A stretch of 64,000 bases of DNA from a virus. Lineage: Duplodnaviria > Heunggongvirae > Uroviricota > Caudoviricetes. The stretch lies in the IMG/VR virus record IMGVR_UViG_648028025_000010; one strand, written 5' to 3'. The position numbers were made by a program. Shown in pieces: positions 40,501 through 46,500 of the stretch; within the stretch, counting starts at the first letter, position 1; the number at the start of each line of letters is the position of its first letter.

Positions 40501-43500
40501 TGCAGAAGAAGATTAATTAATGAAAAATATTCTCAATTTGTACCCAACAAAGACAAACACGACCAGAGCACCTGTTCAGACAGGTTTACTTAAACGACTT
40601 ATATATGACACAAAAAGCGACCACTAAAGTCGCTTTTTCTTATGGTAACAGGCAATAACTCTCTCAGATATTTTTTAGCATTTTTTTGACCGCGCGTTTC
40701 CGGACGTATTCTGTTCTCCTGTCCCTTTATATCGTCGGAATACCCGCCGCTCTTCAAATCCCATTCCCAACTCAGAATGTAGTCTGTTGACCGCTTGTTT
40801 TATTTCGGTCAGGTTCACCGGTGAAACCGGAGTCCGGCGCGCCTTACGCAAACACTCTGCTCGTTTCTGTGCCGCCACTTTTCTTTTCTGGTCATCACTT
40901 AGCTGTACCATCACTTTTGCCCATCGTTCAGCTGCTCTCCGGTACAGTCCTTTTTTCTCCAGACATTCTGCCACGTGATCATGTAGCATAAGTGACCTCC
41001 GATTATCTACAGACTGCCATCCTGAATTTACCTTCCCTTAATGAAATAACAATAAAAAACAAACCACGCAAAAACAATAAAACAACACACAAAAAAAACT
41101 AAATAATAAACAAAAATAATCACCTTATTTTATTATTTTTTGAGGGAGCAATTACTGAACAAAAAACGCTGACTATATACTCAAAACCAAACAACTATTC
41201 TGCCAATCAGGTATCATGGCAACACACGGAATTACCGTGTTTTTGCCTTCTCTGCCCATACAATACGGGCATATACTTCATTCTCTATTGTAATATTTCT
41301 ATCCATGTGCCCCACTCCATTTACCTGTAAATAATATTCAAAATATTTATCACAGAAATCGTTTTTGGCCATGAACTGAGCACACTATAAAGTCCGGAAC
41401 TGACTCTTTGTTAAATTACCTTAACGTTACCAGTAACACCTTCATAACAAAACATCACGGTATACACTGGGTACGGATATATTCCTGTGCTCCTTCCAGT
41501 TGCTTCTGCATTGCCATCAGCCGTTCTCTGAGGATGAAATAATCCCGTTCAGCGGCTTCTGCCAGTCGGGGACCGGTTGCATTATCCACGCCGGAGGTGA
41601 TGGGGGCTTTACGCAAGGAGCCTGGACAGTTGGCGTTGATGCGCAGGCGCTTACGACCAGCGGCAACATCAGCACGCAGAGTTTCATTTTCAGCTCTCGC
41701 ATCGGCTAATTCCCTCGAGTATCTGGCATCAAGTGCAGCGACATCACGCTGGCGTATCTGCATATCAGTAATTGTCGCGTTCGCCAGCTCCAGCTCACTG
41801 GCTTTTTTATCGCGCTGCTCTTTGTAGATGATGGCGTGATCACGGTAATGATTCAGCCCCAGACTAAGCGCACCACAGGCCACCAGCAGGACAATGATAA
41901 CCACGCACAGAACACGGTTCATATCACCACCAACGGATTGCCCAGACCAGAACAGCAATGGCCACAATACGAATGGCAAAAGCTGCCGCTCTTGTTAAAT
42001 CCAGACTGGCGTCTCCACTTCAATGCCTTTCATAATGGACAACCTCAGAAAGAATCTTTTATACTTCCTCACAGGGAAAGTACCTCCCTACCCATAATTT
42101 CTCCCTTGCCTTACTCAAGGTCAGAAAACACAAAACCCCGCTTGCTGCCAACAAACGGGTTTTTTACTTTTATTCACTTAGGTTTTACCAGTTTTCAGGA
42201 TTTCGTGTTATCCACCCGCGTTGGCCAACGTCATTTTTCAGGAAAATATTCTGCTATCTGTCGATGTCCCAGCACGCCAGCGCGCTCTCCTGGTCACGCC
42301 GTGAGACCTGACCGTAGCAATTATTTGAACGGATACGGCAGTCTCTGCCACCGTCCTTAATCCACCAGCGAATCGCCTCACAGGCACCTTTTCGATCGCC
42401 TGCATTAATTCGTTTATAAAACGTCGACGGGAAGCACTTACCGGGGCCAATGTTGTACGGACAGAATGACGCGATCCCCGCTTTCTGGGGTTCGGTCAGC
42501 GGCACCCGGATGTTTTTCTCCACCCATGCCAGCGCCTTATCACGTTCAATAGCGTTAACCTGGTCGCATTTTTCCTTCGTCAGTTTCATGCCAGGAATAA
42601 CAGGCTTACCATCCACCCGGGTGGCTCCACGGCAGATGGTCCAGATACCCGCACCATCACGGTATGCCGTGGTGTGGTTACCTTCCTTTTCATCCAGAAA
42701 CTGGTCGAGGATTTCAGGCGCAGACGCCCCTGCACCAATCAGCGCCAGAACGGCAGCCGACAGGCCGTATTTGATTTTTGCGTTCATGGATATTTATCAG
42801 GATTTATCGGTTCCGAATCCCTGGATATGTTAAGCCTTCACCCCACCAGTGGTGGGCACTGGCGGGTTCTTAATTTCCCCGGATGATCGTGGATTACATT
42901 CCACCAGGAGATTACTTATGCTTATCTATCCAGCGGCAGACCTCCGTTTACAGGGACGCAGAGCACAACCATGGGATAAAACAACCACTCATAAATATCG
43001 TCCCGGTCAATATTATGACTTTCGTAAACACCCGGAACTGATCGAGACACACCTTGAGGATTTTGTTGAATATTCAGACAGACAAGCGATTCAGACCTTT
43101 TTTTCTTTTGTTAAGTGGATCAACAGCAATTCATCTGCATTCGAGAGCACGGACTGCATGTTTTCAGGAACACCAAAGGTTGATGAATACGCCCCGGTAT
43201 TTGGTTGCACCCATGCGTCATCTGGCCGCTTCGAATTTTTGTTTCGCGATACGAAAATAAACCAAAATGAGCGAGCTGTCGGATGGGTACTTAACAAACT
43301 ATCGCTCTACCTTCAGAAAGAACGGCCCGATTTTTGTAAAGGAACCTTTGGCATCGTTCCCCTCATGACGGAATATACCGACTCCGGCGGTAACGAGTTC
43401 ACCGGTTATCGTATTTGTGTCTATTTCGATGCTTACGGGAATGGAACAGAGGATACCTGGACTTCTCTCAACATCATGTTTGATGGCCTCATGAAAGCCA

Positions 43501-46500
43501 CCAAAAGAATGAGCAATGAAACAATCACTGGCGAGATGCGTCCCCTTTAAAAAATTATCCAGAATCTCACTATTTGCAGAGCGCTCTCTGTTTTTTTGAA
43601 TACGGAAACACTCTGCGAGATTTCTGCTCATCACTTTCCGGCAATAATCGTAAAACGCCGCGAACTGCTCATCACGGCGTTTTTTTTCACCTTCGGAAGG
43701 GATCTGCACCGACAGTTTTTTATTCAGTTCAACGACGCTGTTCTCCAGTTTTTCAATGCGTGATTCGATATCATCTTTTTCTGACTGTATCGTGTTATAT
43801 GCATTGTTAATTTGTATGGTATACCGCTCTTCTGAACAGAGGCGCTTTTCCGGCAACGGTTCGTTCCCTTCACATAACCCGGCAGCAATATCCATGAAAA
43901 ACTGCTTCGCCTTCTTTTTCGCCTCAGCTTCGTAAAACTCCAGCGGGGCACCTTCAACACGATCAAGATCAATCACCACATTTGGCAACAACAGTGACGT
44001 ATACCCACCAGTTTCCAGCGCCACAGTAACAGTAATCTTATCCGGGTAAATATTTATCCCTTTAACAACCAGTTCGTATTGTTTATTCATCGTCTACTCT
44101 CCCCGCGCCGCCTTACGACGGTCCTCTCTGATTTTGAAATACAGGTTAGTAAGATACGTCAGCAGGCCAAACAGCAGACTCCCCAGCACACCTATCGCCA
44201 CCCACTGGGACGGAGAGACTTTGTCCAGCAGCTGCAGTAACCAGTATCCCGTCCCCACCGCTGACGTGGTGTATGACACACCTGTTGTGATTTTTTCCAT
44301 CTGATGTATGTCTCCGTCACCGCCGACAGAAAATGAAAGTAAAGAAAAACAAAAAAACCGCCAGTGTCACCCACTGACGGCCAACTCCGGGAGCCGTGAT
44401 TATGGCATTCAGGCTCTGCTAAAAATGCCAGATAACATTCCGGCCTCCCCTGATTCAGGTTATAAATGACACAATATCTTGACAACACCCGTCACTGTCT
44501 GTCAGAAAATATACCGCTAGGCATAAGTATCATGTGAAATCCAACTATCCTTCTGAGCCAGCACCTCTCCACCGAAAGTCAGTGCTGGCTGTTTTTTTCC
44601 TTAATAAAGCATCTGTAACTGAAACAATCCGCATATTGATAATATATTGACAGGCATCATTGCTGTCTGTGAAAAATAAGTCTCTACAAACATATAAGGC
44701 CTTTTAGCCAGCGTCTTCTTTCAGGTCAGTCGCTGGCTCTTTTTTTATTATGCTGCCGGTGCATTTATCTCCAGCACCAGACTTTCTATCTCAACGCCAT
44801 ACGCTGCATTTTTTGTAACATCCGTCAGCGTCAGCGCATTCAGTCCCAGTGTCAGACTGTCTTTTATAACCTGGAATGCCGGGCCAGCCACTCCATTCAG
44901 TTTCGGAGTAACCGTGGCACTGCCGGCGGTGAACACCAGCTCCAGCGTCTGCCAGTCGTTACCGTAATCGCCGAACTCCCCCAGCTTCGTGTTTCCGGCT
45001 TTCCTGTGATGCATCAGATTCACTCTGCCGTCAGTGGTCTGAGTGAAGTACGACATCAGGAACGGATTACCGGTACCCGTCATCGCCACACCATCAGGAA
45101 CGGGAGCATCCGTATACAGATAAATCCCCAGCCCGAACTGATTGTTGGTCAGTGCGCCTGACAGGCGGAACTTACAGGTCAGTCTGCCGCCCTGTGTCAG
45201 CAGGGTAATTGCGTCATCCACCGGATGCGTCAGGGACCAGGTTTTATTGCTCTGCTTGGTGATCTTAAATACACCATCTGACAACTGAATTCCGCCATCC
45301 TTAATGCTCCAGCCCTGCGCAGCAGCCTCTCCGGCTGCCGGCAGCAGGGAGATTGTGCGAACGGACGTATCTGCAGACGGACCCGATGGCGTGTTGCCGC
45401 CGGGCGAGGGTTTGATTTCCGGTGCCTTACCACTGATGAAGGCGGAGGTGCGCCCGGCTGCGTTCAGAATAGCGGTTGCCAGACGATCCGGAATAATGCT
45501 CCTGCGCGCCCATGAACTGAAATGTGTCGGGCGGTTTGATGATACCTGGTTTCCATTCGTTCTCGATGCCGCACCGTAATATCCTGATGCCGGAATATCC
45601 GGATCTTCTGCCGGCGCGTTAGTGGCGGTATTGACACCGTTACCGTCTGTCATGAAGGGCACAAAATAAACGCCCTCACTCTCCCTGTTTTTATACCCGC
45701 CGTACACGGTGTCGTACTGGGTAGCGTATGTATTTTTCCAGTAATACGTCGTGTCACCACAAATCCACGGCACATCTGCAGCACTGCCACCATGGCACTG
45801 CGCGTTAAACACGGAGAGGTCAGCACGAAACTGTGTCAGCATGGCTGTAAACAGCGCAGGTTGCTGTGCGTGGGTGGCGGCGCTCATGTCAAACTCTCCC
45901 TGCATCCAGCACACCGCCAGCAACACATTTTTCGGGTTCTTCTGTAATGCAGCTTTAGTGCGCGCAATCAGGTCCTGATATAACGGTTTACCCACACCCC
46001 AGCGTGCCGAATCCTGGCTGGCCCCCGTGTCCGCACTGAATGTCCCCTCCGCGCCCTGGGTGAATGCCGAACCACCACGACAGCATGGTACCAGCAGGAT
46101 CCCCGCGTTATTCGGGATATACGGGAGCAGTTTTTTGGCAATATGTAAGCCCTGGCCGACACAGCCGTACTGCCCTTTGCTCAGGTCTGCCTTCGGATGA
46201 TTCAGCGTACTCATATCCTGCACATCATGCAGGCAGTGGTCGGCCGGAATAATATCGTTATATCTGCATGCAGCCCCACCCGGCGTAACTGTACTGCGGC
46301 GCGCCAGCTGTTTAATGCGCGGATCCGGAGCATCGTATGAATCCGGCAGCGGAAGCCCTTCACCGTAAGCCATGGCATTGGACTGCCCGGCCAGTACGAT
46401 GACGTAGTACCAATCCGGCTCAGTTGCACCACTGACCACCACATCACCTTCTGCTGTAATCGCCTGCATCAGGGTATAAGGGGTTATGGCCACCGGACTA

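Follow-up and report, generated by a model that had tools for sequence, protein, structure and literature searches.

What separates the holin gene from the endolysin gene in the lysis cassette of an Escherichia coli prophage, and does the DNA between them encode one protein, two or none? The DNA analysed here, hereafter the window, is a stretch of 64,000 nucleotides (nt) from a tailed-phage genome (IMG/VR record IMGVR_UViG_648028025_000010), in which the whole lysis cassette lies on the minus strand and the holin gene S (44094-44300) is separated from the endolysin gene R (42254-42787) by a spacer of 1306 nt (42788-44093). The initial annotation regarded this spacer as an insertion of ~1.3 kb into a cassette in which R normally follows S directly, carrying two convergent, overlapping open reading frames (ORFs) of 263 and 210 amino acids (aa), and all of its coordinates were correct. 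We propose, with a probability of about 0.6, that the spacer consists instead of the usual ydfR-type gene and a foreign module of ~750 bp, which carries a cargo gene, here called A, on the non-late strand and a late-expressed partner, B, that would have been overprinted on A, kept by selection and fused to YdfR.

Two genes share 252 nt on opposite strands

Gene A (42918-43550, plus strand) encodes a protein of 210 aa (24.3 kDa, isoelectric point 5.8) and runs antisense to the late operon. Its strong Shine-Dalgarno (SD) sequence, noted from the outset, is AGGAG at 42906-42910, 7 nt before the ATG, and AAGGA or AGGAG is found at the equivalent position in the A homologues. Gene A is real, since full-length homologues of the same size share 65, 64, 54 and 53% identity with it, a profile search of 1.84 billion representatives recovered 251 relatives (cluster representatives) of ~200 aa, and an AlphaFold model obtained with the family alignment as input reached a pLDDT of 95.1 and a pTM of 0.91.

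The two ORFs had been described as overlapping by ~250 nt at their 3' ends, and both contain real coding sequence. The overlap measures 252 nt (43299-43550) and comprises A codons 128-210 plus the stop codon on the plus strand and gene B on the minus strand, with the codons of the two genes in register. In this register the antisense frame can be closed only by the A codons TTA, CTA and TCA. These account for 30-60% of the Leu/Ser codons in the first 128 codons of A and for none of the 10-16 Leu/Ser codons in its last 83 codons in 14 of 16 homologue sequences. The stop codon of B is the complement of A codon 128, and an antisense stop from this codon (CTA or TTA) is present in 15 of the 16 sequences, the exception being L005. 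The same overlap and the same antisense stop position are found in homologues sharing 37-56% protein identity, and this recurrence in diverged homologues places the arrangement beyond chance. Based on the codon usage of the N-terminal part of A, the probability of a stop-free antisense frame is 0.001-0.017 per lineage in seven lineages, which are effectively independent at silent sites because their N-terminal synonymous codon identity (0.41) equals the saturation value (0.39). Outside the window, the B frame has its own SD sequence and ATG, 9-27 nt beyond the A stop, and its products of 89-90 aa share 33-53% identity in a nearly gapless alignment (two single-residue gaps) that ends in a conserved motif (...KIGPFYLK..).

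Substitution patterns point in the same direction. Within the overlap, A has a synonymous identity of 0.60 compared with 0.41 in its N-terminal part, an increase seen in 21 of 21 lineage pairs, and third-position divergence drops from 0.58 to 0.45; the synonymous rise is absent (0.41 vs 0.45) in comparisons with two lineages in which B is interrupted. When the A protein was held fixed and its codons were redrawn in 500 trials, the amino-acid identity expected for B was 0.316 ± 0.012 with a maximum of 0.352, whereas the measured value is 0.49 (z about 14). B also remains intact in copies where the N-terminal half of A is gone, and B-type proteins are occasionally called as genes in Enterobacter and Yersinia. 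The locus therefore combines open frames with conserved starts and stops, reduced synonymous divergence and a conservation of B beyond that imposed by A, and these comparative signals indicate that the dual coding is real and that B is kept by selection.

The same data bear on the possibility that A is the only functional gene. The antisense ORF would then be incidental, and the 263-aa protein would end in an unselected read-through tail of 83 residues, produced by the landing of the module in ydfR. Such an explanation would fit with the general tendency of the register-aligned antisense frame to be the most open, with the lack of a family or fold match for B, and with L005 and L008, where A is open but B is interrupted (L005) or shortened (L008); yet seven stop-free lineages with saturated synonymous sites, an SD sequence and ATG conserved in the right frame, the excess of synonymous constraint and of antisense amino-acid identity, and an intact B beside a truncated A make this explanation improbable. 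The B frame could also be open only to provide ribosome cover for the late transcript, protecting it or preventing polarity on R/Rz or on the tail gene J, in which case the peptide itself would be irrelevant. B is indeed always on the late strand and directly after a late gene (holin or tail gene I) or fused to one; however, its amino acids are conserved well beyond what A imposes, and it spans only about the first 270 nt of an insert of roughly 800 nt, leaving more than 500 nt untranslated before R. Moreover, lambdoid late transcription is Q-antiterminated and resists polarity, and we consider ribosome cover very unlikely to be the sole reason for the open frame.

Two other sources of the pattern were considered and rejected. 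A third-position shift in composition (C3 up, A3 down) does exist, but it is predicted by a G1-rich antisense frame and is absent where B is broken, so composition does not by itself explain the stop-free frame. Homogenisation of the 3' part by gene conversion is not seen at the protein level, where the two parts of A have almost the same amino-acid identity (0.60 vs 0.63).

A homologues at 37-38% identity still carry B, whereas at 25-31% identity antisense stops occur in this region and there is no B. As the C-terminal third of A is ancestral, these comparisons are best explained by an origin of B through overprinting inside the enterobacterial phage branch of the A family. Few long protein-coding overlaps on opposite strands are known from bacteria and phages, and their reality is often disputed; the comparative evidence for A and B is unusually clean, with an overprinting origin that can be dated. 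A similar case is laoB of E. coli O157:H7, a young small gene that lies antisense to a CadC-like regulator, has an overprinting origin (PMC5810103) and, like B, was missed by annotation pipelines. In contrast to laoB, A and B reside on a mobile phage module, are conserved across Escherichia, Salmonella, Enterobacter and Yersinia, and the evidence for them comes from comparative signals of selection, not from expression. Two protein genes that overlap on opposite strands are also found in Pseudomonas phage Fc02 (olg1 and gene 10), where the lysogenic transcript carries one and the lytic transcript the other; that pair is located in the immunity region, and both of its genes have been shown to exclude phages (PMC9936078); the Fc02 pair has no sequence relationship to A and B, which are known here from sequence alone.

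The 263-aa ORF is a chimera of YdfR and B

The minus-strand ORF (43299-44090; 263 aa, 29.7 kDa) begins with an ATG 3 nt after the TAG of the holin gene and has its own SD sequence, GGGGAGAG at 44097-44104, inside the 3' end of S; as the initial annotation proposed, it is placed for translation right after the holin. It had been taken for a single gene of unrecognised family, a description that does not hold. The same was claimed of A, and there searches of Pfam, PHROGs, NCBIfam and PADLOC indeed gave no match, but the 263-aa product carries at residues 1-96 (43803-44090) a DUF1327/YdfR domain, common to phages YYZ-2008 and PhiR12_1, that matches PF07041 over profile positions 1-90 of 93 with an E-value of 7.5e-34 and a score of 116.3 bits (cutoff 25). 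This domain is followed in the same frame by the helical or coiled-coil linker of the long YdfR (aa 97-~164, 43599-43802), which according to PHROG and DNA alignments is common to the 169-aa PhiR12_1 protein and to a 161-aa ORF of Stx2_499, and then by the B portion (43299-43598). PHROG 2091 and PHROG 1085 match only aa 1-170, ending at residues 168-171, and the PHROG 36381 set also covers aa 105-167. The core of B (aa 174-263, 43299-43571) is homologous to the stand-alone B proteins of 89-90 aa, and its N-terminal extension (aa 165-173) is homologous to a 104-aa stand-alone B that directly follows holins elsewhere. B had no match in Pfam, PHROGs, NCBIfam or PADLOC beyond the DUF1327 of the fusion.

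In the window the stop codon of the long YdfR is missing and the upstream frame runs straight into B, the start region of which (M..LD.FL in stand-alone B) reads SEILDNFL and contains neither an ATG nor an SD sequence. This comparison shows that the 263-aa ORF is chimeric, a long YdfR having been joined in frame to the separate gene B, which has lost its own start here. The chimera resembles the YdfR/DUF1327 proteins of other S21-type cassettes (Qin prophage ydfR, H-19B, YYZ-2008 gp44) in its position right after the holin and in having DUF1327 at residues 1-96, and the long YdfR with its helical tail in its match to PHROG 2091. Typical members, in contrast, stop shortly behind the helical tail, at a length of 103-183 aa, and with 263 residues the window protein is outside the size of DUF1327 proteins that end in this way (~100-185 aa), as ~95 residues of the unrelated B are appended. 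The partner at the N-terminus of B varies by locus: DUF1327 and linker in the window (263 aa), linker only in Stx2_499 (161 aa), and none where B stands alone, either as 104 aa located 4 nt after an S21-type holin (L051, L052) or as 89-90 aa with its own SD sequence after tail gene I. The constant part is B, always on the strand of the late genes.

The spacer combines a resident ydfR-type gene with a foreign module

We compared the spacer with other phages by megablast against phage records and by aligning four annotated comparators to the window. Contrary to the expectation that the endolysin gene directly follows the holin gene, H-19B, YYZ-2008 and PhiR12_1 carry a ydfR/DUF1327 gene between S and R: the spacers of YYZ-2008 and H-19B encode a YdfR family protein of 114 aa, and that of PhiR12_1 a long YdfR of 169 aa together with a different small plus-strand ORF. 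The Stx2_499 spacer contains the 161-aa ORF without a DUF1327 domain, and its remainder matches the spacer of the window. The segment missing from PhiR12_1 and YYZ-2008 corresponds to about 42865-43611. Since a ydfR/DUF1327 gene is usual between S and R, the foreign insert is ~750 bp rather than the 1.3 kb first assumed. The idea of foreign cargo between S and R was borne out, the insert having a G+C content of 0.41-0.47 vs 0.53 in S and R.

In PhiR12_1 (L003) the plus-strand ORF (2701-2961), annotated as "DUF1823 containing protein", converges on the long YdfR gene (2909-3418, minus strand) with a 3' overlap of 53 nt. The presence of a different antisense ORF at this position suggests that the same spot may accept several antisense cargos.

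The window arrangement is present in five Stx1a phages with 99.4% identity, and the full spacer was found in 119 of 5426 complete E. coli genomes and, among 50,697 phage records, in eight Stx phages. Carriers of the module include Stx1a and Stx2a phages of Shiga toxin-producing E. coli O145:H28.

Mobility and boundaries of the module

Homologues of A occupy several sites. One is located between the Q gene and the holin gene, just upstream of the latter, in a P22-like Salmonella prophage (L008, 8618-10257), another upstream of a different holin in a second E. coli prophage, and a third in a Salmonella prophage remnant beside sodC; in many enterobacterial prophages A homologues are found between tail genes I and J. 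In every phage context seen A opposes the surrounding late genes and B runs with them. Distant members of the A family (25-31% identity) occur in integrase-bearing or defence-type islands of unrelated bacteria, and one A homologue adjoins a TIR gene. The P22-like Salmonella homologue lies within a few kb of a Kiwa defence system (KwaA, KwaB). These defence-related neighbours are compatible with the abortive-infection or superinfection-exclusion role that the initial annotation had raised as speculation. No upstream partner gene is shared among the distant A homologues, a scan of genome contigs yielded only two A loci, in Acidobacteria and with uninformative neighbours, and searches with PADLOC, Pfam and NCBIfam found no defence or toxin-antitoxin component among A, B and 19 distant A homologues.

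The module behaves as a moron in being present in only some related phages, at varying sites and with deviating composition; as for the promoter and terminator that a moron should have, a terminator-like hairpin with a T7 run follows A, 26 nt past its stop and inside the coding sequence of the chimera (43576-43597, plus strand), and upstream there is a weak, conserved promoter candidate only (TTATCG at 42804-42809, a spacing of 16 nt and TATGTT at 42826-42831, plus strand). With the lambda-type morons bor and lom, which we take in the sense of Hendrix/Juhala-type definitions, it shares the character of foreign, lower-G+C cargo in a late operon, with a terminator-like hairpin behind it and different sites in different phages, and bor of lambda is, like A, antisense. 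Unlike these morons, the module has a second, oppositely oriented gene embedded in its cargo gene.

The 5' flank of A (42796-42862, plus strand) contains a block, ATCAGGAT...CCCTGGATATGTT, that is common to the tail-region copies of the module and to all S21-type S-R spacers. Its first ~40 nt, ATCAGGAT...GGATATGTT (42796-42834), are also found in S-R spacers without A and B, for example upstream of R in YYZ-2008 (L004), and could be the remnant of an old insertion or a recombination site. A hairpin at 42846-42862 (plus strand) marks the point where homology with cargo-free spacers resumes.

In the tail-region copies (L011 479-494, L036 5873-5890 and L061 3857-3873, minus strand) a strong terminator-like hairpin with a T-run on the late strand directly precedes the ATG of the J-like tail gene, so that the module is bracketed by hairpins on both sides. 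The window has no equivalent terminator before R, and a terminator scan of the window found no minus-strand terminator-like site between S and R. Late transcription reaches R only after crossing gene A in the antisense direction.

Putative function of the pair

The model of A is an alpha/beta structure in which an antiparallel sheet is packed by long helices; no close or informative fold match was found for it, and a sequence search of the PDB gave no match for A or B. When 94 members of the A family were scanned against Pfam, none matched except for one weak DUF5659. Residues R15, P18, Y32, F35, P39, E47, D48, N69, S73, E76, D79, R104, R110 and N115 are nearly invariant in the family, a pattern that reads like a ligand- or metal-binding site. 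We take A to be an old cytoplasmic protein that moves between prophages and genomic islands and in which the set of invariant Arg, Glu and Asp residues resembles that of an enzyme, any activity being putative only. At the RNA level, an Rfam search found no RNA family, and the predicted fold of the 5' untranslated region of A is ordinary (z of -1.3).

The layout of the locus suggests, as the best inference for the pair, a cargo gene on the non-late strand with a late-expressed partner. In the lysogen, with the late operon silent, A would be expressed from its own transcript. Once the prophage is induced, the Q-modified late transcript would run through S and ydfR::B, then antisense through A, and on to R and Rz, and this order would lead to production of B together with the lysis proteins; by its fusion to YdfR behind the holin gene, the 263-aa product would be made right after the holin. 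A may then be shut off by collision of convergent transcription and by formation of an RNA duplex, and the strict strand rule, A against and B with the late genes, suggests such a simple switch-off of cargo at induction. B could be a late-phase partner acting on or with A, most likely as a regulator or neutraliser. In this way the phage would carry a cargo activity, perhaps one of defence or exclusion, that spares its own lytic cycle.

Several observations weigh against this proposal. No convincing sigma-70 promoter was found upstream of A in five loci by a scan in which none reached 9 of 12 matches; the TTATCG-16-TATGTT candidate was not among the sites which that scan detected and is putative. 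B spans only 83 of the 210 codons of A. Furthermore, each gene persists when the other is damaged (A in L005 and L008, B in L049), which argues against strict mutual dependence and lends some weight to A and B being functionally unrelated, with A an ordinary moron cargo, B an independent late accessory protein of lysis or the virion, and shared DNA merely the outcome of overprinting. In S-R spacers B always lies 3-4 nt after the holin, and in the window it is fused to YdfR, which has been reported to co-purify with RNA and to use its first 72 residues to bind the N-terminal domain (catalytic half) of RNase E (PMC13232886); both features would suit such an independent role. However, A and B travel together through at least four insertion sites and down to 37% identity of A, an association that, were it accidental, would be expected to break more often, and we therefore regard functional independence as possible but unlikely.

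An addiction module that stabilises the prophage, with A as toxin and B as antitoxin or the reverse, would account for two small mobile genes in prophages and islands, and one homologue adjoins a gene with a SocA_Panacea antitoxin domain. Neither gene matches a toxin-antitoxin or PADLOC family, though, the distant branch of the A family has no B, and a convergent layout would not give the co-expression needed by protein-protein toxin-antitoxin pairs; such a module is highly improbable. The SocA_Panacea neighbour belongs to a metagenomic homologue (L059, 37% identity), on the other side of which the ATG of B appears to overlap the stop codon of an upstream minus-strand gene (ATGA, 1865-1895).

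A more specific version of the proposed cargo-partner arrangement is tentative and rather doubtful at present: A and B may represent a new kind of cargo in which the antidote is written antisense to the effector, A being a defence or exclusion enzyme expressed in the lysogen and B readable only from the Q-dependent late transcript that silences A. If so, the prophage would gain built-in self-immunity during induction, and the fusion of B to YdfR would tie B to RNA turnover at lysis. SieB and Esc provide self-immunity in P22 and lambda, Esc being made in frame inside sieB. The proposed logic for A and B is similar by analogy only, as a prophage cargo activity would be combined with a phage product that spares its own lytic growth; there is no homology, and Esc, unlike B, is an internal product on the same strand.

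Whichever function applies, the pair is neither a new lysis-accessory family nor an ordinary hypothetical gene. The A/B unit unites a moron, an overprinted antisense gene as in laoB (PMC5810103) and opposite-strand genes of lysogenic and lytic transcripts as in Fc02 (PMC9936078) in a conserved mobile module, of which the structure is solid and the function inferred, and it offers an entry point to two uncharacterised protein families.

Annotation of the locus in public records

No description of this A/B locus was found in the literature searched. In E. coli E2865 (L056 9001-10306), the spacer of which is 100% identical to 42788-44093, PGAP marks only a 249-nt DUF1327 pseudogene with "missing C-terminus", and ~1 kb, including A and B, is unannotated in RefSeq. 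Records of the exact 263-aa protein come from at least 999 public contigs and bear the name "DUF1327 domain-containing protein". In NCBI, A is present almost only as "hypothetical protein, partial", probably because it is retained chiefly where a contig end truncates the competing ORF. The locus illustrates how settling overlaps by discarding one ORF erases a real gene. An 85-aa stand-alone B of Enterobacter hormaechei (P0182) is named "DUF1327 domain-containing protein, partial" and has no DUF1327 domain; the name was probably transferred from the 263-aa fusion protein.

The surrounding lysis cassette

The holin gene S (minus strand) encodes a pinholin of 68 aa of the S21 type (class II), with a match to PF04971 (Phage_holin_2_1, phage 21 S family) at 8.8e-33. 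R (minus strand) encodes a lysozyme-type endolysin of 177 aa (PF00959, Phage_lysozyme, 3.2e-25), the N-terminus of which, YGLSAAVLALIGAGASA, is rich in Gly, Ala and Ser and resembles a signal-anchor-release (SAR) segment. With Phage_holin_2_1 followed by lysozyme and then by Rz/Rz1, the cassette has the composition of a phage 21-type pinholin/SAR-endolysin cassette, SAR behaviour being predicted from the sequence.

Upstream of S, the region 44748-50900 of the window contains the Q antiterminator region and a 616-aa DUF1737/SASA esterase of the nanS-p type; stx genes were not found between the two, although an identical spacer occurs in Stx1a/Stx2a phages of O145:H28. Downstream of R, Rz (41455-41979, minus strand; PF03245 match) contains an embedded ORF for an Rz1-like lipoprotein (41517-41702, minus strand; MRELKMKLCVLMLPLVVSAC...), and this classical same-strand overlapping spanin pair is located 1.3 kb from the antisense pair of A and B.

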